Shown here in pieces: positions 3,117 through 49,463 of a DNA stretch of 57,871 bases; positions within the stretch are counted from its first letter, which is position 1, and each line of letters opens with the position of its first letter. A program made the position numbers and the translations under genes. Origin of the DNA: Candidatus Woesearchaeota archaeon (lineage in GTDB: Archaea > Nanobdellota > Nanobdellia > Woesearchaeales > UBA11576); NCBI GenBank assembly GCA_016929255.1, contig JAFGJH010000059.1:1-57871 (forward strand). Reading direction: 5' to 3'. Below the pieces are notes generated by a model that saw nothing but the letters and a program-made list of their open reading frames with translations, was not told where the DNA came from and ran no database searches.

Positions 3117-4163
3117 ATGGAAAAAACAGGTGAAAAAGCCAAGTCCTTCATCACGCACTCAGTGTTCATAATCATAGTAATCCTCGGGCTTTACTTCATC
3201 GTCACAGCATCGCCCACACTCACAGGATACGCGGTCCTCGACGCGAGCACTGCAAAAGCAAAGCTCGAAAGCGCTCTGTCAGGCTCCGCGATGTTCAGCC
3301 AGATAGCCCAGTCGAGCATCTGCGTGGTCATAAACGACCCCGAACAGCCACTTTCGCTGCAGGCTGCCAAGACAAGCACAGGATGGACTGTATCCGAGAT
3401 GAAAGGGATGTGCGCAGGCTTCACGTCAGAGGATGTCATAATACAGTTCCCTGACTACGATTCATTCTCAAAGATGGTGGATGACCCGTCTCCGCGGAAC
3501 CTTGCCAACGGAGCGATAAACCAGGACTTCCAGATACTTCAGTCAAGGTATGTCGAGCTGGGAGGCAACGTGGTCTGCGACGCAGCGTTCAGGGTCAAGT
3601 ACTGCGAAGCCCTCAAGAGCATGGCAACAACGAACCAGCTCATAGACGGCGACCTCGCATGCTGCCTTGACAAGCTCACAAGGGCAGAGAAGAAGCTCCT
3701 CGAAGAGCACCTCAATCAAGGCAACTATGAAGATGAGATGGGTGTCCTCCAGCAGCCCACGACAATAGCAGGCATGAGCATGACCACAAGCATCATAATA
3801 CTCGCCGCAGTAATCCTGGTCATCGTCGGCATAGTCGCAGGGGTCATGATGGGACACAAAGGAGGCAAGGCCCCTTCGACGACAGCTGCTCCGATGCCCA
3901 CTATGCCTGCTATGCCTGCAGGAATGCCTGCGGGAGCAGAGGCGGCGGGGGCCGCGATGCCAGAGGTGCAGGCAGGATACAGCCGGCCAGCACAGCCTAC
4001 AGAAAGCCCGCAGATAACCGACCTCAGGAACTATGTTGCGCAGGTGATTTCAGAAGGGTATGACCTTGAAGAGATAAGGTCACACCTCATCGAGATAGGC
4101 TGGGACTACCAGACAGCAGAGCAGATAATAGGAGATGCGCAGCAGCAGCTGCAGCAGCAGTAG
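3117..4163 (+). CDS. Membrane protein, function unknown
   Basis: 348-aa ORF with N-terminal signal-anchor helix, second TM helix (IIILAAVILVIVGIVAGVMM), Pro/Ala/Met-rich linker (PMPTMPAMPAGMPAG) and a short C-terminal helical domain. Confidence 0.6.
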   Translation: MEKTGEKAKSFITHSVFIIIVILGLYFIVTASPTLTGYAVLDASTAKAKLESALSGSAMFSQIAQSSICVVINDPEQPLSLQAAKTSTGWTVSEMKGMCAGFTSEDVIIQFPDYDSFSKMVDDPSPRNLANGAINQDFQILQSRYVELGGNVVCDAAFRVKYCEALKSMATTNQLIDGDLACCLDKLTRAEKKLLEEHLNQGNYEDEMGVLQQPTTIAGMSMTTSIIILAAVILVIVGIVAGVMMGHKGGKAPSTTAAPMPTMPAMPAGMPAGAEAAGAAMPEVQAGYSRPAQPTESPQITDLRNYVAQVISEGYDLEEIRSHLIEIGWDYQTAEQIIGDAQQQLQQQ

Positions 4164-4262
4164 AGGATGCAAAACCGCGCAATATAAAAACCGGCACAAC
4201 AAGCTTTTTATACTCTTTCTGACAAACAAGCCATATAAAGAAAAAGCAAACAGGGGGTAAGC

Positions 4263-5438
4263 ATGGCAGATCTCATAGACGTTATGCGGAGGATGCGGAA
4301 GCTGTCCTCTGAAGAGGAGAAGTCTCTCGATTCCCTTGACTGGTATGTCTCTGAAAAGCAGAAACGCCTGGTCAGAGGACTCCTCAAGGAGAAGAAGGTG
4401 GCCATAGAGACGGAATCATTCTCGCTCGGCGGGCTCATAGACAGACTCAGCATCCCCAAGCTGGTAGCCAAGAAGAAGAGTGAAGAGGCAGACGGGCTGA
4501 TAGAAGACATCAACACAGCGATAGACGAGAAGACGAAAAAGACCCTGTTCACAGAATTCTCAAAAGCAATACATGACAAATGCTCGCAGATAATCGCGCC
4601 CAACATAGTCGGGTTCGAGACAGTCAAGAAGGCAGTCGCGCTGCAGCTTCTCTCACCGGAACGCATACACATACTTCTGCTCGGCGACCCGGGCACAGGC
4701 AAGACACAGATACTCAGCTCAGCGACAGAGCTCGCTCCGATATCATCGATGGGGCTCGGCTCAGGCACTTCAGGAGTGGGTCTTGCGGTAACTGTCAAGG
4801 GCAACGAGGTGATGAAAGGGCTCCTGCCCATGGCAGACAAAGGCCTGTGCGCAATCGACGAGCTCAACCTCATGAAAGAGGAGTCGAGGGCCAGCCTCTA
4901 CAACGCTATGGAGAAAGGGTTTGTCAGCTACGACAAGGGAGGACACTCATACAAGTTCGACGCGCGAGTGTCTGTGCTTGCGACAGCAAACCCCAAAGGC
5001 GACAAGTTCACGGGCACGACAGTCAGCGAGCTGAAGAAGCAGCTCCCGTTCGATGCAGCGCTGCTGACGAGGTTCCACCTCACATTCCTGGTCAAGAAGC
5101 ACGACATAGATGAGTTCAAGAAGATAACAAAGGCCCTGCTGCAGAAGTGCAAGCACGAGCTGAGCAGCAAGGAGCAGGAATTCCTGAAGAGCTACATAAG
5201 GCACGCGCACTCGCTCGGGGACATAAATCTCCCGAAGAAGTTCGAGCAGGAGATAGTCGACTTCATTGCAGACATAAAGGAGAACGAGAAGAAATACCTC
5301 GTCGAGATATCCCCCAGGATGGTCGTCGGCTTCACAAGGCTCGCGAAAGCATCCGCGCGCTCAGAGCTGAGGGGAGAGGTCGCTGAGAAGGACGTGGCGC
5401 TGGTGAAACATATAGTCAAGGAAAGCCTTAAGCTGTGA
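4263..5438 (+). CDS. mcm: MCM-family AAA+ ATPase lacking the canonical N-terminal OB/Zn domain
   Basis: 391 aa. IAPNIVGFETVKKAVALQL, Walker A LLGDPGTGKTQ, Walker B CAIDELNLM, MCM-type arginine finger LLTRFHLTF, sensor-2-like ISPRMVVGFTRLAKASA. Only about 110 aa precede the ATPase core. Confidence 0.75.
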   Translation: MADLIDVMRRMRKLSSEEEKSLDSLDWYVSEKQKRLVRGLLKEKKVAIETESFSLGGLIDRLSIPKLVAKKKSEEADGLIEDINTAIDEKTKKTLFTEFSKAIHDKCSQIIAPNIVGFETVKKAVALQLLSPERIHILLLGDPGTGKTQILSSATELAPISSMGLGSGTSGVGLAVTVKGNEVMKGLLPMADKGLCAIDELNLMKEESRASLYNAMEKGFVSYDKGGHSYKFDARVSVLATANPKGDKFTGTTVSELKKQLPFDAALLTRFHLTFLVKKHDIDEFKKITKALLQKCKHELSSKEQEFLKSYIRHAHSLGDINLPKKFEQEIVDFIADIKENEKKYLVEISPRMVVGFTRLAKASARSELRGEVAEKDVALVKHIVKESLKL

Positions 5439-6645: not shown

Positions 6646-7041
6646 ATGCCTCACCAATGCGTCAGATGCGGAAAATTCTATGAGGATGGAGACTCAACGC
6701 TCCTTCAGAAGGGCTGCTCGTGCGGGTCAAGGCTCTGGTTCTTCGTCAAGAAAGAATCAATAGATAAAGCCAAGACAATAAACACCAACCTCACGCAGGA
6801 GCAGAAGGTGCAGATCGAGGAGGATGTCCGTGAGATAATAGGCGAAACAGACCCTGATGAGCCCGTGGTGCTGGACCTCGAGTCCATACGCGTGACAGAG
6901 CCCGGCAAGTTCGAGCTCGACCTCGTGCAGCTCTTCAACAAGGACAAGCCGATAGTCTTCAAGCTCGCAGAAGGCAAGTACCTGATAGACATACCAGAGA
7001 CCTTCCAGAGAAGAAGGGAGCTGGGCGAGAAGCACGAGTGA
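6646..7041 (+). CDS. Zn-ribbon protein (DUF2072-like)
   Basis: 131 aa. N-terminal CxxC...CxC ribbon (CVRCGKFY...GCSCGS). Third gene of the GTPase triad. Confidence 0.6.
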   Translation: MPHQCVRCGKFYEDGDSTLLQKGCSCGSRLWFFVKKESIDKAKTINTNLTQEQKVQIEEDVREIIGETDPDEPVVLDLESIRVTEPGKFELDLVQLFNKDKPIVFKLAEGKYLIDIPETFQRRRELGEKHE

Positions 7042-7075
7042 CTATTTCTTGTAATCTAAAATGAAAAATACAAAA

Positions 7076-7280
7076 ATAATGCCGACTCGTGGACTCATCG
7101 GCATCATTAAGCATTAAAAAATGCATAATGCATTTTTTCAAATACAAAGATAATCCCGACTCCCTGCGGTCGTCTGGGATAATCAAGCATTTGAAAACAC
7201 AAAATCCCGACTTTACGGATAATCCTGCGGATTATCCCACTTGGCAACAGGTTGTCAATCATCGGGATTTTGCATTTCTC
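7076..7280. repeat. Cluster of three related hairpin units plus a 23-bp perfect palindrome (possible ncRNA or operator array)
   Basis: Unit 1 stem ATGCCGA/TCGGCAT (7078-7104). Palindrome AAAAAATGCAT-A-ATGCATTTTTT (7116-7138). Unit 2 stem ATCCC/GGGAT (7153-7180). Unit 3 outer stem AAATCCCGA/TCGGGATTT (7202-7210 / 7262-7270) encloses hairpins GGATAATCC/GGATTATCC and TTGGCAAC/GTTGTCAA. Each unit is followed by GCATT. Confidence 0.45.
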
Positions 7281-7283
7281 AAA

Positions 7284-7462
7284 TGGGACGGCGGGGACTT
7301 TCATGTTGTTGAACAACAATTTGAACCCCGAACCCCACGGTATCTGACAATCATCCCCTTGCGGGTCATCATACCGTATGGCATGAAACGGCCTTCAGCC
7401 GTGTGCTCTTTTCTGCCGCGAGCCTCGCAGGCTCGGCAGGTCCCAGATTGAGCTACCGTCCC
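7284..7462 (-). tRNA. tRNA-Phe (anticodon GAA) with three introns; CCA not encoded
   Basis: The minus strand parses exactly (179 nt) as GGGACGG-TA-GCTC-AATCTGGGA-[32 nt]-GAGC-A-CACGG-CTGAAG-[51 nt]-A-CCGTG-GGGTT-CGGGG-TTCAAAT-[22 nt]-CCCCG-CCGTCCC-A. The spliced 74-nt product has fully Watson-Crick stems and closely resembles known archaeal tRNA-Phe. Confidence 0.85.
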
Positions 7463-7702
7463 ATCGACCGCTCTTTGTTGTCTCTCATCGGCATAAAGCC
7501 TCGACAATCTGGGTGGTCATACGAAGAATCTGATTGATTTATATAACTTTTGGTGCTTGGCTGTTCCATCCCGCACAGCCACAGCGCGCTCCGTCCTCTT
7601 CTTAAACAGCATCTTTCACCGAGTGTTGAACTCTGGATCATTATCCCACAACGTCGCAAGGCGGCAGTGGCTGTGTGGGCCGGTTTTAGAATTAGACTCT
7701 GA

Positions 7703-8200
7703 TCAGCTGAGGTCCTCTTCCTCGACATCAATGGGATCTTCAGGAGCGCCCCCTTTCTTCGGCACCTCGTCCTCCTTGTCATCACCGAACGAGAAATCAT
7801 CGGGCTTATCCGCTGATGCCGACTCCTCCTTTGGCTCTTCCTTCTCTTCGGCAGGCGCCGGTTCCGGCTTCGCAGCAGCCCCCGGACCTTCTGCTTCCTG
7901 CGGCACACCCTCCTTACTCACGACGTCAAGCGTACCGAACTTCCCTGTCGTCAGCTGAAGCTCACCCTGAAACTCGCCAACATAGCCTTTCTGGATCTTG
8001 ACCTTGTCACCCACGCGGACCTTCTCAATCTGCTCATTCCACAAAGAAAGCTTAACCCTGCCGGTGCCGTCCTTTATCAGCGCATTCGCGACCTTACCCT
8101 GCCTACCAAACTTGCTGAACTCACGGACATCACTCATCTCAACAACTTCACCTTCGACATCAACATTCGTCTGTCTCGGCTGCAGGTCTTTTATGAACAT
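7703..8200 (-). CDS. Single-OB-fold ssDNA-binding protein (SSB/RPA-like) with acidic C-terminal tail
   Basis: 165 aa. One OB-fold-like N-terminal domain (VDVEGEVVEMSDVREF...GKVANALIKDGTGRVKLSLWNEQ), then a Pro/Ala/Glu-rich linker and an acidic tail ending DPIDVEEEDLS. Confidence 0.7.
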   Translation of the reverse strand: MFIKDLQPRQTNVDVEGEVVEMSDVREFSKFGRQGKVANALIKDGTGRVKLSLWNEQIEKVRVGDKVKIQKGYVGEFQGELQLTTGKFGTLDVVSKEGVPQEAEGPGAAAKPEPAPAEEKEEPKEESASADKPDDFSFGDDKEDEVPKKGGAPEDPIDVEEEDLS

Positions 8201-10181: not shown

Positions 10182-11714
10182 ATGATAAAAGGACAGGTGG
10201 TGGGAGGAGAGCTCGGGAAGGTATGCATAAGGCAGAAGGCCGACGCCTGCCTCGAGATAGGCGAGCTCCTTGTAAGCGGCGACGACAGGCAGAAGATACT
10301 CCTCCAGGTGTATGACCTCAACTACGGAAGCCAGATATCACAGCAGAACCTGGAGCTCATATCAGGCATGAAGCTTGAAGACAACACAGACATATCGTTC
10401 TTTGACGGCAATGTGCGCAACTACACCCTTGCCTCGGCGAAGCCCATAGCCATAATACGCGGCACAGATGTCCAGCTATGCAAGCAGCTGCCCCTGTTCT
10501 TCGGCGAGCTCAGGCAGGTCGAAGAGGCAGACCTGGACTTTATGGTCACTCCACCCAACCCTCTGTTCCTCGGCAACCTCAGGTCCGGATCAAAGATGAT
10601 GGATGTGCCGATAAGCATCCCCGGTGACAAGGTATTCTCGCACCATGTGCTCATAACATCGACGACAGGCAGAGGCAAGAGCAACCTCGTCAAGGTCATG
10701 CTCTGGAGCGCAGTCGACAAGGGATATTGCGGAGTTATTGTTCTAGATCCGCACGACGAATACTACGGCAGGAACGGACCAGGGCTGAAGACGCACCCTT
10801 CCTCCGGAAACGTGATATACTATACACCGAGGGACGCTCCGCCAGGAGCAAAGACACTCAAGATAAACCTCAAGCAGGTGAAGCCAGACCATTTCAGGGG
10901 CGCAGTTAACTTCTCCGACGCGCAGGTCCAGGCGATGAGCGCATACTACAAGGAGTACGGCAAGAAATGGGTAGAGGCAGTCGTGCTCGAGAAGCCTCTC
11001 AAGGTAGAGTTCCAGGAAGCCACAGTGGGGGTTCTCAAGAGAAGGCTCATGCACCTGCTTGACCTAGACTTCGACGGGAGCCAGCTATACTGCAACGGCG
11101 TGTTCGACCTCAGCGCAGGAGAGACCACCATAAAGGACATCGCAGGCGAGGCAGAGCAGGCCAAGACAGTCATAATAGACACATCAGGATTCTCAGGAGC
11201 AGTCGAGATAATGATAGGCAGCATGGTCACGACAGAGATATTCAACAGGTACAGGGGCTATAAGGCAAAAGGCCAGTTCGACAGCAGGCCGGTGGTCTCA
11301 ATTGTGCTCGAGGAGGCGCCCCGCGTGCTCGGAAAAGAGGTGCTGGAGTCAGGCGCCAACATATTCAGCACAATCGCCCGCGAGGGAAGGAAGTTCAAAG
11401 TGGGGTTGACAGCCATAACGCAGCTGCCTTCTCTCATACCCCGCGAGGTGCTCGCGAACATTAACACAAAGATAATACTGGGCATAGAGATGAAGCCCGA
11501 ACGTCAGGCCATAATCGAATCAGCATCGCAGGACCTGTCCACAGACGACAGGAACATAGCATCGCTCGACAAGGGAGAGGCGATAGTCACGAGCAACTTC
11601 GTAAAGTTCGCCACGCCCATAAAAGTCCCTCTTTTCACGCAGCATATAAAGAAAAGCCAAAAAGATAATAAACCAGAGAGACATCCGAGCTTCGAGGGAG
11701 TCAGGCTGACCTGA
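10182..11714 (+). CDS. HerA-like ATPase (HerA/FtsK superfamily, DUF87-type) with N-terminal barrel domain
   Basis: 510 aa. Walker [11 protein letters not shown], Walker B-like [30 protein letters not shown] motif. Confidence 0.8.
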
Positions 11715-22679: not shown

Positions 22680-25662
<2,983 letters not shown>

Positions 25663-40691: not shown

Positions 40692-41939
40692 ATGGAGACA
40701 AGAAAGCTTCTGGACGGCGTACTAAAGCAGATAAAGCCCACAGACAGGAAGCTGTTCAAGGAGATAAACGAATTCCTGAAGAAGCTCAATTCTGAAATCA
40801 AGAAGAGCAAGACAAAGGCAAAGGCAGTCGTCGGCGGCTCAATAGCAAAGGACACATTCCTCAAGGGCGACCATGACTGCGACATCTTCGTGAAGTTTGA
40901 CTGCTCATACAAAGAAAAAGACATATCCTGCATGCTTTTCAAGATTCTCAAGCCTTTCAAGGCAGAGCTCGTGCACGGGAGCAGGGACTATTACCGCGTC
41001 AAGAACATGATAAACTACGAGGTCGTGCCGGTGCTTGACATCAAGGACCCGAAAGATGCCGTGAATGTGACCGACATGAGCCCGCTCCATGTGGAATGGG
41101 TCAGGAAGCACCCCGGATTCGACGATGAGATAAGGCTTGCCAAGCAGTTCTGCAAGGCAGCGCACGTCTACGGCGCAGAGTCCTACATCAAGGGGTTCTC
41201 AGGACATGTCCTGGACGTACTTGTGATACACTACGGCGGGTTCATCAAGCTGCTGAAGGCATCCCGGAAATGGAAAGACAAGGAGGTCATCGACCCTGAG
41301 AAGTTCTACAGGAAAAGCAGGAAAGACGCGCTCGAGCAGCTCAACAGGTCGAAGATAGACAGCCCGATAATAATCATAGACCCTGTCCTGCCGGAAAGGA
41401 ACGCGGCAGCGGCGCTCTCGTACGAAAAGCTGGAGCTTTTCAAGAAGGCGGCGGCTGAATTCATCGACAGGCCGTCACAAGAACAGTTCATCGTCAAGCA
41501 GAAGACCGCTGAAGTCCTCAGGAGAGGGGCGGGAAAAGACAAGCTTATGATTCTCGACGTGACACCATTCACCGGCAAAGAGGATGTTGTAGGGGCAAAA
41601 CTGCTCAAGGCATACCAGCAGATATACAACCAGCTGAAGTTCTACGACTTCGGGATAAAGGATGCCGGCTGGAGCTGGGACAAGAAGGACAAGGCGATGT
41701 TCTGGTATATCCTGGATCCGAAAGACCTCGTGCCGATAAAGAAATGGGTCGGACCTCCTCTCGAAGAGAAAGAAAGAGTGCAGAACTTCAGGGAGAAGCA
41801 TGTGAAGACCTTCATGGAGAAAGGAAGGATATGCACATATGTCAAGAGAAGATACATCAGGGCAGAGGAGCTTGCAGACGACATCATAAGAAATGACGAT
41901 TACCTATATGAAAAAGTCAAGAAGGTGGTGAGACAATGA
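40692..41939 (+). CDS. cca: CCA-adding enzyme (class I archaeal tRNA nucleotidyltransferase)
   Basis: 415 aa. VVGGSIAKDTFLKGDHDCDIFV catalytic motif. Overall archaeal CCA-enzyme layout. Confidence 0.85.
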   Translation: METRKLLDGVLKQIKPTDRKLFKEINEFLKKLNSEIKKSKTKAKAVVGGSIAKDTFLKGDHDCDIFVKFDCSYKEKDISCMLFKILKPFKAELVHGSRDYYRVKNMINYEVVPVLDIKDPKDAVNVTDMSPLHVEWVRKHPGFDDEIRLAKQFCKAAHVYGAESYIKGFSGHVLDVLVIHYGGFIKLLKASRKWKDKEVIDPEKFYRKSRKDALEQLNRSKIDSPIIIIDPVLPERNAAAALSYEKLELFKKAAAEFIDRPSQEQFIVKQKTAEVLRRGAGKDKLMILDVTPFTGKEDVVGAKLLKAYQQIYNQLKFYDFGIKDAGWSWDKKDKAMFWYILDPKDLVPIKKWVGPPLEEKERVQNFREKHVKTFMEKGRICTYVKRRYIRAEELADDIIRNDDYLYEKVKKVVRQ

Positions 41940-45784: not shown

Positions 45785-45927
45785 GCTGCAGCCACGCTGC
45801 TAATCCGCATTCGGTTGCTATCCTCTTATGCATTCGACTGTGCTTGCGCAGTATCCGCTGTTTGTCGGTAAAGTGCAACCCCTTCCGCTTCTCTTGTCAA
45901 CGGTACGCTAAGAGCGGTGGCTGCAGC
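45785..45927. repeat. Family 1 MITE-like element, copy C
   Basis: TIR GCTGCAGCCACGCT / AGCGGTGGCTGCAGC. Core AAGTGCAACCCCTTCCGCTTCT. It sits inside a larger hairpin-rich 45578-45957 segment bounded by the inverted repeats AATTCTGAGCAG / CTGCCAGAATT. Confidence 0.6.
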
Positions 45928-47944: not shown

Positions 47945-48877
47945 TCAGAACTTCATAATTCTCCCATCAAAGTCCTCTTTCATCAACAGCACAACCCTTG
48001 ATGCGGGATGCTCATCTATGACCTTGTAGCCGGCGTGCTCTGCTATCTCTTCCGAGAATTTTCTTACGTCCTTATGCAGGGGCATGTTGGCCAACCCGAG
48101 CTTGAGGCGCGAAGCGCCCACGAACATGTAAGCCTTCACCTCAACAAAGTGAGGGTCAGCGCGCCTTATGAGAGCTGCGTAGCCGGCAGGGTCAAGCATG
48201 TTCATATCATTTATTGCTGTGATGCGGATGCAGGTCCTTGTCTTCTGCTTGAGCTGCTTCATGATGTCAAGGCTTTTCATCAGGCGCTCCCAGGCGTCAG
48301 GATGCAGGGGTTTGCAAAGCCTGTCCTGCAATTCCTTGCCGGGCGAGTCTAATGACAGGTAGAGCTGGGTGGGCGGCTCAAGGTTTTTCATCACTTCAGG
48401 CAGCATGCCGTTCGTGACAACAAAGCTCGAGAAACCCTTCTTCTTCAGCTCCTTGATGAAACCGCTCAGGTGCGGGTAGTACAATGTCTCACCAGTGAGC
48501 GAGATGGCAAACTGGTCAGGGTCCTGCGCCTCCCTGAACTTCCTCTTGTCAGTCTTTTCCAGGCCGCCGAAACCTGACAGAAGCTTGCGCTGGGCAGCGA
48601 CTGCCTTCGCGACCAATTCTTTCGGGTCATCTATGCTTGTGAAAGGCTCATTGTAATGCTCGCGCCAGCAATACACGCAGTCCATATCGCAGAAATTCAC
48701 AGTGACAGACATCTGGCAGCAGCGGTGAGAGCGTATGCCATAGAACTGCTCCTTATAGCACACGCCCTGGTTGCGCAGCGACTTCTTGGTCCACGTGCAT
48801 ATCTTGACAGCAGAGTGGCTGCCGATGAGCTCATAATGCTGTCTCGCCAGCAGCTTCCTGTAAGCTTCTTTGACCAT
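47945..48877 (-). CDS. taw1: Radical SAM tRNA 4-demethylwyosine synthase (Taw1/TYW1)
   Basis: Start at the ATG at 48877 (MVKEAYRKLLARQHY); the longer track ORF crosses the promoter. TYW1-type N-terminal Cys region and CDMDCVYCWR radical SAM cluster. Confidence 0.8.
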   Translation of the reverse strand: MVKEAYRKLLARQHYELIGSHSAVKICTWTKKSLRNQGVCYKEQFYGIRSHRCCQMSVTVNFCDMDCVYCWREHYNEPFTSIDDPKELVAKAVAAQRKLLSGFGGLEKTDKRKFREAQDPDQFAISLTGETLYYPHLSGFIKELKKKGFSSFVVTNGMLPEVMKNLEPPTQLYLSLDSPGKELQDRLCKPLHPDAWERLMKSLDIMKQLKQKTRTCIRITAINDMNMLDPAGYAALIRRADPHFVEVKAYMFVGASRLKLGLANMPLHKDVRKFSEEIAEHAGYKVIDEHPASRVVLLMKEDFDGRIMKF

Positions 48878-48959
48878 GCAGGGTGGGGAGAGGGCTGGTT
48901 TTTTAAGGGTTGCGGCAGCATAAGTAAAATATATAAAACAAGCCTTGTTCTGATGCACT

Positions 48960-49463
48960 ATGAAAGTCCTGGATGTGCTCAAACGGTTCAAGCAGACAAC
49001 CCTGTTCAAGGAATGGCATAGGAAGAACAAGGAAGCGAAGCTTGTCCACGTGTTCATAATGCTTGACCCTGGACAGGAAGTCAAGTATGACATAGGATTC
49101 TACGACTATAGTAAGAAGCTTATGACATCATTCACAGTCGATGAGGCGCTCAATGACATACAGTCCAGGGAAGACAAGGAAGTGTTCAAGAAGCCAGGAG
49201 ATAAGATAAACCCCCTGGATGAGTCAAGGCTCAGAATATGCTTCAATGAAGCGTGCGCCAAGTGCCGGCAGCTCCAGAACGACAAATACAGGCAGCACAC
49301 ACCAATCAAGGAAGTGGTAATACTCCAGAACCTGGACTGCGGGCAGGTCTGGAACATAACATACATCACAAAGACCTTCCAGACACTCAACATGAAAGTG
49401 GACGCTGAGACAGGAGATATCGTGGAGGAAAAACTCCACCAGATATTCAGCTTTGATAAATGA
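48960..49463 (+). CDS. Hypothetical protein, possibly PepSY-like
   Basis: 167 aa. C-terminal VWNITYITKTFQTLNMKVDAETGDIVEE resembles the PepSY pattern. Confidence 0.4.
   Translation: MKVLDVLKRFKQTTLFKEWHRKNKEAKLVHVFIMLDPGQEVKYDIGFYDYSKKLMTSFTVDEALNDIQSREDKEVFKKPGDKINPLDESRLRICFNEACAKCRQLQNDKYRQHTPIKEVVILQNLDCGQVWNITYITKTFQTLNMKVDAETGDIVEEKLHQIFSFDK

Follow-up and report, generated by a model that had tools for sequence, protein, structure and literature searches.

Archaeal tRNA genes interrupted by several introns have been described in the Thermoproteales (Crenarchaeota; for example Pyrobaculum and Thermofilum, Sugahara et al. 2007/2008), and three introns were given as the known maximum for a single gene in a 2014 review (PMC4033280). 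A tRNA-Ile gene of a red alga contains introns in the D-arm, at position 37/38 and in the T-loop (22 nt), all with motifs of the bulge-helix-bulge (BHB) type, and reverse transcription PCR showed that these introns are removed stepwise, the outer ones before the one at 37/38 (PMC3728597). Non-canonical tRNA introns are also known in ARMAN and other DPANN archaea (PMC3239211, PMC5829648). The BHB consists of a 4-bp helix (H) located between two 3-nt bulges that contain the splice sites, flanked by outer helices h and h'; in the strict form, hBHBh', each outer helix must exceed two base pairs (PMC3728597). Here we describe a gene located on contig JAFGJH010000059.1 of a Woesearchaeota archaeon (57,871 nucleotides; the whole of this stretch is referred to as the window). 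Our data indicate that the segment at 7284..7462 on the minus strand is very probably a functional tRNA-Phe(GAA) gene with three protein-spliced introns of archaeal type, at positions 20/21, 37/38 and 59/60.

The complete gene is 179 nt in length and is composed of four exons and three introns, reading from 7462 to 7284 on the minus strand as GGGACGGTAGCTCAATCTGGG, a 32-nt insertion, AGAGCACACGGCTGAAG, a 51-nt insertion, ACCGTGGGGTTCGGGGTTCAAA, a 22-nt insertion and TCCCCGCCGTCCCA. Exon 1 (7442..7462, 21 nt; all features of the gene are on the minus strand) corresponds to tRNA nucleotides 1-20 and contains the 5' strands of the acceptor stem and D-stem and the D-loop up to G20. It is followed by intron 1 (7410..7441, 32 nt), which interrupts the D-loop at 20/21, and by exon 2 (7393..7409, 17 nt), which extends from A21 to G37 and contains the 3' strand of the D-stem, the 5' strand of the anticodon stem, the anticodon GAA and G37. 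Intron 2 (7342..7392, 51 nt) is located at the canonical 37/38 site, and exon 3 (7320..7341, 22 nt) extends from A38 to A59, including the 3' strand of the anticodon stem, the variable loop, the 5' strand of the T-stem and the T-loop sequence UUCAAA. Intron 3 (7298..7319, 22 nt) interrupts the T-loop at 59/60, and exon 4 (7284..7297, 14 nt) extends from U60 to A73 and supplies the 3' strands of the T-stem and acceptor stem together with the discriminator base A73, at 7284. The gene therefore contains three introns, two of which are at non-canonical sites (20/21 and 59/60).

A first-pass annotation of the same DNA had read the 179-nt segment as a tRNA carrying insertions of 32, 51 and 22 nt, and the segment reads exactly so; the spliced 74-mer that it quoted is an exact string match to the sequence left when the inserts are removed. 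ARAGORN called the 74-nt RNA formed by joining the four exons as tRNA-Phe(gaa), with acceptor, D, anticodon and T stems of 7, 4, 5 and 5 bp, all of them Watson-Crick, in agreement with the identity, perfect stems and A73 that had been claimed for it. The anticodon GAA, A73 and G20 are identity elements of tRNA-Phe, and wyosine is formed at G37 in archaea and eukaryotes; the spliced sequence carries G34, A35, A36, G37, G20 and A73.

The unspliced gene escapes standard tools. ARAGORN found no tRNA in the whole window, either with default settings or with introns allowed, and Rfam returned no tRNA match in the window at the gathering score or at E<=10; its exons are too short for this. When the window was searched for other T-arms, either intact or with a split at 59/60, only this gene and one false positive inside an open reading frame (ORF) were detected. 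That no automatic tool calls the unspliced gene, and that freely chosen deletions bring many degrees of freedom, could be taken to mean that three arbitrary deletions in a random 179-nt sequence happened to give something tRNA-like. However, the spliced 74-mer has perfect stems and conserved tRNA loops, relatives give the same product (one of them from an uninterrupted gene), covariation among them beats all 500 shuffles, and the BHB register has a p of ~3e-5. The agreement of spliced products among the relatives, the covariation and the BHB register, all described below, refute a chance origin, to which we assign a negligible probability.

We fetched 80 loci around relatives of OapC, the product of the gene next to the tRNA, and the 12 closest (L001 to L012, all Woesearchaeota) have a tRNA-Phe gene at the same place, just downstream of oapC and convergent with it. 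Alignment of the spliced forms indicated that these orthologues contain from zero to four introns distributed over five sites (20/21, 27/28, 30/31, 37/38 and 59/60). L001 has the same three introns as the window (20/21, 37/38 and 59/60), and L003 has four, at 20/21, 27/28, 37/38 and 59/60, in a gene of 211 nt (10529-10739, minus strand). Three introns are also present in L004 (27/28, 37/38 and 59/60) and L012 (30/31, 37/38 and 59/60), two in L002, L007 and L008 (27/28 and 37/38) and in L005 (37/38 and 59/60), one in L009 (37/38) and none in L006, L010 and L011. Every orthologue yields a 74-nt tRNA-Phe when spliced in silico, and the product of the four-intron L003 gene equals the uninterrupted L006 gene base for base; L004 and L005 give this same product despite their differing sets of introns. 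All 27 introns were compared by BLAST with the window and the 80 loci for paralogous copies that would indicate intron transposition, and only orthologous matches were obtained.

The spliced genes comprise nine distinct sequences, on which 100% of the cloverleaf cells are paired and nine pairs are altered on both sides. These compensatory changes include pairs in the T stem, which is split by the 59/60 intron, in the anticodon stem flanking the 37/38 intron, and in the acceptor stem, which spans the whole gene. None of 500 shuffles matched the observed values, and slid controls gave 41-52% of cells paired.

Two of these relatives differ in the region upstream of the gene. In L004 (10796-10950, minus strand) and L005 (5687-5790, minus strand), 15 nt of the tRNA 5' end (GGGGCGGTAGCTCAA; the L005 copy is degenerate) are duplicated ~100-154 nt upstream of the complete gene, following the conserved leader or promoter. 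The duplicate resembles a scar left by an insertion that entered the tRNA gene and carried a 5' part of its own. We considered the 154-nt stretch between the two 5' ends in L004 as a fourth BHB intron and rejected it, as only the palindromic AGCT pairs, with no h or h', and the upstream copy in L005 is degenerate.

The BHB register that we applied, in which exon bases -6 to -3 from the 5' splice site pair with intron bases -6 to -3 from the 3' splice site, was taken from the canonical anticodon-intron pair at 37/38. In this register, all four pairs of the H helix are Watson-Crick at each of the three junctions of the window gene (UCUG/CAGA, CUGA/UCAG and UUCA/UGAA), and each intron contains a single tetramer able to pair with the exon tetramer, at exactly the required position. 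Four of four H pairs at all three junctions were reached in ~3e-5 of mononucleotide intron shuffles. The first-pass annotation had left two of the boundaries ambiguous, at 20/21 or 21/22 and at 59/60 or 60/61; because alternative boundaries that yield the same product give at most one H pair, the splice sites are fixed at 20/21, 37/38 and 59/60, and the 21/22 and 60/61 placements are discarded. The same annotation had named the absence of BHB-like structures as a result that would refute its reading, and a BHB or relaxed BHB can be drawn at all three junction pairs.

Judged by the strict motif, one of the three introns is strict and the other two fall into recognised relaxed classes, HBh' and hBH (PMC3728597). 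Intron 3 is the strict hBHBh' case, with the 5-bp T-stem as h, UUCA/UGAA as H, UGUUG/CAACA as h' (5 bp when drawn by hand, 6 in the computed count, which includes a G-U pair) and two 3-nt bulges, and this T-loop intron is probably the easiest substrate for the endonuclease. Intron 1 is a relaxed HBh' motif in which the UCUG/CAGA helix is followed by an h' of two base pairs (CC/GG), a 1-nt bulge and then a longer helix, the inner hairpin. Intron 2 is a relaxed hBH motif with CUGA/UCAG as H and the 5-bp anticodon stem as h.

The register also holds in the relatives. Among the orthologous introns, 26 of 27 have three or four of the four H pairs (computed for the loci up to L011, the three introns of L012 being checked by hand), the exception being a 16-nt intron of L005 as first aligned; in L003, all four introns have four of four. 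The T-loop introns (22-57 nt) cannot be aligned with one another except for a terminal TG[AG]AAG, which forms H and the 3' bulge. Further tRNA-Phe genes with D-loop inserts were collected by scanning metagenomes, and with those from genomes this gave eight distinct 20/21 introns. Each begins with A and ends with CAG[AGT]AA, and the h' helices span 2-11 bp without sharing any sequence. If the HBh' motif is under selection, conserved ends combined with unrelated h' helices are what would be expected.

Several observations weigh against a functional gene whose three introns are all removed by the splicing endonuclease. In intron 1, helix h is missing and the 3' splice site falls inside a 2x3 internal loop beside the D stem, the h' of intron 2 is just 1 bp, and in the unconstrained minimum free energy (MFE) structure the 5' end of intron 2 pairs with the 5' strand of the anticodon stem, leaving no BHB there. 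No EndA or RtcB gene was found by Pfam scan among the ~50 ORFs of the 58-kb window. In addition, the DNA inspected covers 58 kb of the genome, and a further tRNA-Phe gene that lacks introns may be present elsewhere.

The energetic observation can be put in proportion. A structure containing the cloverleaf and all three BHBs has a free energy of -73.9 kcal/mol, compared with -79.3 for the unconstrained MFE (a gap of 5.4 kcal/mol), and the MFE structure already contains H of intron 1 and h' of intron 3. The energy model folds even the mature tRNA otherwise than as a cloverleaf; since the mature tRNA itself is not modelled correctly, the disagreement at intron 2 weighs little.

The missing outer helices of introns 1 and 2, the MFE pairings around intron 2 and a conserved 9-mer in the 5' leader (described below) that competes with intron 1 for the same D-loop bases could all be accommodated if the gene were functional but not every insert were removed by the BHB endonuclease, the relaxed D-loop insert being excised by another activity or after the RNA had been reshaped. 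This explanation is set against the fact that HBh' and hBH are themselves recognised archaeal classes and that the H helix and bulge bases are conserved in eight otherwise unrelated 20/21 introns, as selection for recognition by the endonuclease predicts. To our knowledge, there is no other mechanism for excising a 32-nt D-loop insert. We consider removal by other means highly improbable.

The window gene could instead be a decaying or redundant copy, with a separate, intact tRNA-Phe gene doing the work elsewhere in the genome. The limited extent of the inspected DNA leaves room for such a gene, standard tools do not call this one, and relatives contain remnants of insertions at the locus (the 15-nt duplicate of the 5' end in L004 and L005, 154 nt upstream). 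On the other hand, the exons are perfectly conserved, with compensatory changes across stems that introns split, each insert has the exact BHB register, the promoter is conserved, and there is no other tRNA-like T-arm in the window. Furthermore, the only tRNA-Phe found per related locus is the syntenic one, which in the intron-free relatives is an ordinary tRNA-Phe gene. A pseudogene is therefore very unlikely, and the evidence favors a working gene with three endonuclease-removed introns.

The likely promoter of this gene is a B recognition element (BRE)/TATA sequence, GCACCAAAAGTTATATAAATC, at 7536..7556 on the minus strand, which is conserved in the window and in L001 to L011. Two TATA boxes had been suggested previously, a weak one (TTTAT) near the gene and a strong one at 7536-7547. 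The strong box (7547..7536) proved to be part of the conserved BRE/TATA (7556..7536), as CCAAAAG-TTATATAAA, whereas the TTTAT is the loop of a conserved leader hairpin and is not kept as a TATA box, so that the distal BRE/TATA is the likely promoter and the leader is likely ~55 nt. The BRE/TATA is 31-36 nt from the tRNA 5' end in intron-poor relatives and ~75 nt from it in the window and in L001, L002, L003, L007 and L008, because a conserved element of ~45 nt intervenes. Judging from the usual archaeal distance between TATA box and start site, transcription would begin near 7516-7520.

The conserved leader element (7480..7513, minus strand) is also present upstream of tRNA-Phe in L001, L002, L003, L004, L007 and L008. 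It begins with a 9-mer, CCCAGATTG (7513..7505), that is complementary to tRNA nucleotides 13-20 in the D-loop; a 9-nt complement was reached by 42 of 5000 shuffles. In L007 and L008, the D-loop is CAACCTGG and the leader contains AGGTTG, indicating that the 9-mer covaries with the D-loop there. After the 9-mer comes a short hairpin (7504..7480) that resembles a kink-turn (K-turn), with GA-rich flanks (TCGA GGC tttat GCC GATGA). The element may act in cis as an antisense sequence, a guide or a folding chaperone. Two further interpretations of the leader were discarded. The ~55-nt leader was evaluated as a full box C/D small RNA (C, 12-nt guide, D', C', guide, D), and was not classed as one because L002, L003, L007 and L008 do not keep the terminal C and D boxes. 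The second half of the leader also matches intron 3 over 7-8 nt, but L001 lacks this match, which was treated as chance.

A long tRNA leader implies a 5'-processing activity. An intergenic segment of the window (45787-45925, minus strand) gave a weak match to the Rfam archaeal RNase P RNA that, at 15 bits and E=3.3, falls far short of the gathering score and is probably noise.

Intron 2 contains a second conserved module (7349..7377, minus strand), composed of ACGGTAT followed by TGATGA-CCC-gcaa-GGG-GATGATT. The first-pass annotation had drawn GGTAT/ATACC as a hairpin internal to the intron; this is incorrect, as the ATACC strand is made up of the final two bases of the intron together with exon nucleotides 38-40. 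The ACGGTAT sequence is complementary to the last two intron nucleotides plus tRNA nucleotides 38-42 (AT/ACCGT, the slash marking the splice site), and this 7-nt complement (ACGGUAU to AU/ACCGU) is kept in five orthologues (the window, L001, L007, L008 and L009), with an invariant target and without covariation. If the module were read as a box C/D guide, the rule of the fifth nucleotide upstream of box D would indicate position 39 (C39).

The Haloferax volcanii pre-tRNA-Trp intron is a box C/D guide for Cm34 and Um39 (PMC2584109). In guides of this type, box C (RUGAUGA) pairs with box D (CUGA) and box C' with box D', each pair forming a K-turn, and ~10-12 nt upstream of box D or D' are complementary to the tRNA target. 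Intron 2, at 37/38, recalls that intron in its conserved hairpin with a GA-rich internal loop, which a complement to the 3' strand of the anticodon stem precedes. It differs in having one K-turn-like motif, a complement of 7 bp as opposed to a guide of at least 10 bp, and a length of 51 rather than 103 nt. Intron 2 contains only one GA-rich hairpin and no terminal C/D pair, and Rfam returned no C/D family match at intron 2. The K-turn reading is weak as well, in that L001 has no A next to the stem, the leader of L003 has AG in place of GA, and RNAalifold identified one compensatory pair only. With boxes incomplete and the motif damaged in L001 and L003, we do not claim that the leader hairpin and the intron 2 module belong to the K-turn or half box C/D class, and we note them as a lead.

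We propose the following processing pathway. Transcription would start from the BRE/TATA ~75 nt upstream and would produce a leader of ~55 nt. In each 3-nt bulge or loop next to H, EndA would cut between the second and third bases and produce 2',3'-cyclic phosphate and 5'-OH termini, and a ligase of the RtcB type would join the four exons and probably circularise the introns. The ends would be trimmed, the window-encoded CCA-adding enzyme would add CCA, and G37 would be converted to a wyosine derivative by the Taw1 enzyme that is also encoded in the window. With relaxed motifs at two of its three junctions (HBh' at 20/21 and hBH at 37/38), the gene requires an endonuclease that accepts relaxed BHB motifs, and we infer that this lineage has a splicing endonuclease of broad specificity. 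An alpha4-type EndA with an extra L3 loop is described in several DPANN lineages and linked to a greater number of disrupted tRNA genes (PMC5829648).

Genes in the window are consistent with this maturation. A73 of the tRNA gene is followed by TTT and CCA is not encoded, so a CCA-adding enzyme is needed, and the cca gene previously proposed at 40692 was confirmed by Pfam (40692..41939, plus strand). A gene for a radical-SAM wyosine enzyme of the Taw1/TYW1 type is located at 47945..49093 on the minus strand. Enzymes of the Taw1 family act on m1G37 of tRNA-Phe, and the presence of this gene fits a working, G37-bearing tRNA-Phe in this organism. The window also encodes an archaeosine-type tRNA-guanine transglycosylase (24178-25662, plus strand); this tRNA-Phe would not itself receive archaeosine because its position 15 is A, not G.

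The tRNA gene is flanked by oapC (6646-7041, plus strand) and by a gene for an Ssb-like OB-fold protein (7703-8200, minus strand), and oapA, oapB and an MCM ATPase gene are close by. The best OapC homologues come from metagenome-assembled genomes (MAGs) of Woesearchaeota and Nanoarchaeota, and the 'uncultured Methanosarcinales' titles on some of these records look like pipeline labelling. In the MCM region (3117-5438, plus strand), a 391-aa ORF (4263-5438) contains the MCM ATPase and lid without N-terminal or OB domains, and the preceding 348-aa ORF (3117-4163) has no Pfam match; the two may represent a split or divergent MCM. The intergenic region between oapC and the tRNA gene (7042-7283) contains four copies of AAT(C/G)CCGA(CT) within ~23-nt repeats spaced by 74 and 51 nt, the inverted repeats GGATAATCC/GGATTATCC and AAAATCCCGA/TCGGGATTTT, and an AT-rich palindrome at 7116-7138, and similar hairpins are found downstream of the tRNA in L001, L003 and L004. 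Located beside oapABC and MCM, this region could be a replication origin, although the GC skew of the window does not turn there. Two ORFs overlap the tRNA gene (7089-7451, plus strand, 120 aa; 7301-7507, minus strand, 68 aa); neither is likely to be real, both being almost certainly spurious, and annotation pipelines could list them wrongly as hypothetical proteins.

Compared with the systems described above, the Woesearchaeota gene resembles the multiple-intron tRNA genes of Thermoproteales in containing several short introns (three in one gene) at canonical and non-canonical sites, each with a strict or relaxed BHB, and in the rapid turnover of introns among related genomes. It differs from them in belonging to the DPANN rather than the TACK archaea, in a moderate G+C content (~50% in the window) and in showing no sign of intron transposition between tRNA genes in the sequences compared here; the Thermoproteales endonuclease is an (alpha-beta)2 enzyme with a crenarchaeal loop. 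Its three-intron architecture is near-identical to that of the red-alga tRNA-Ile gene, down to a T-loop intron of 22 nt in both. The algal gene, however, encodes a different tRNA in a eukaryotic nucleus, its D-arm intron interrupts the stem rather than the loop, and its splicing has been confirmed experimentally.

The closest systems by phylogeny are the disrupted tRNA genes of DPANN archaea, in the same superphylum as the window gene, which are associated with the epsilon2 EndA of ARMAN-2 or with alpha4 enzymes carrying L3 (PMC3239211, PMC5829648). The survey in PMC5829648 included one Woesearchaeota genome and remarked that incomplete tRNA sets hint at undetected disrupted genes. The failures of ARAGORN on the window gene and its relatives fit this remark. 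The survey presents counts, and the text considered here describes neither this particular tRNA-Phe gene, nor its five intron sites across relatives, nor the four-intron orthologue. Multiple-intron archaeal tRNAs and DPANN tRNA disruption are thus already documented, and the window gene adds a well-supported case where only survey-level data exist; five alternative intron sites in one orthologous gene among close relatives go a little further than known cases. A limited literature search found no published equal of the four-intron L003 gene, which, if confirmed, would surpass the three introns so far given as the most in any one archaeal tRNA gene (PMC4033280).

It is conceivable, but in our view rather doubtful, that the clade is a second hot spot of tRNA-intron turnover, independent of the Thermoproteales, in which an alpha4-type EndA does the cutting, and also that the leader and intron 2 module are K-turn or half box C/D units acting in cis, which could direct 2'-O-methylation (around C17 and C39) or help the BHBs to form ahead of splicing. 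The alpha4-type endonuclease was once thought to be strict.

The finding also bears on how genomes of this group are read. With introns allowed, ARAGORN detected only the intron-free and single-intron genes among L001 to L012, missing six multiple-intron genes and reporting those of L002 and L007, which have two introns, as tRNA-Leu with an incorrect intron. MAG annotations of the clade probably report tRNA-Phe as absent or mis-typed, and genomes with such genes would score as lacking tRNA-Phe, which would skew completeness estimates and claims of host dependence in DPANN. For the splicing machinery, two relaxed motifs out of three predict a broad-specificity endonuclease in the lineage. Finally, gain and loss of tRNA introns have so far been studied mostly in thermophilic Crenarchaeota, and this clade, which lies outside that group and contains closely related loci with zero, one, two, three and four introns, represents a natural experiment on the gain and loss of introns in archaeal tRNA genes.

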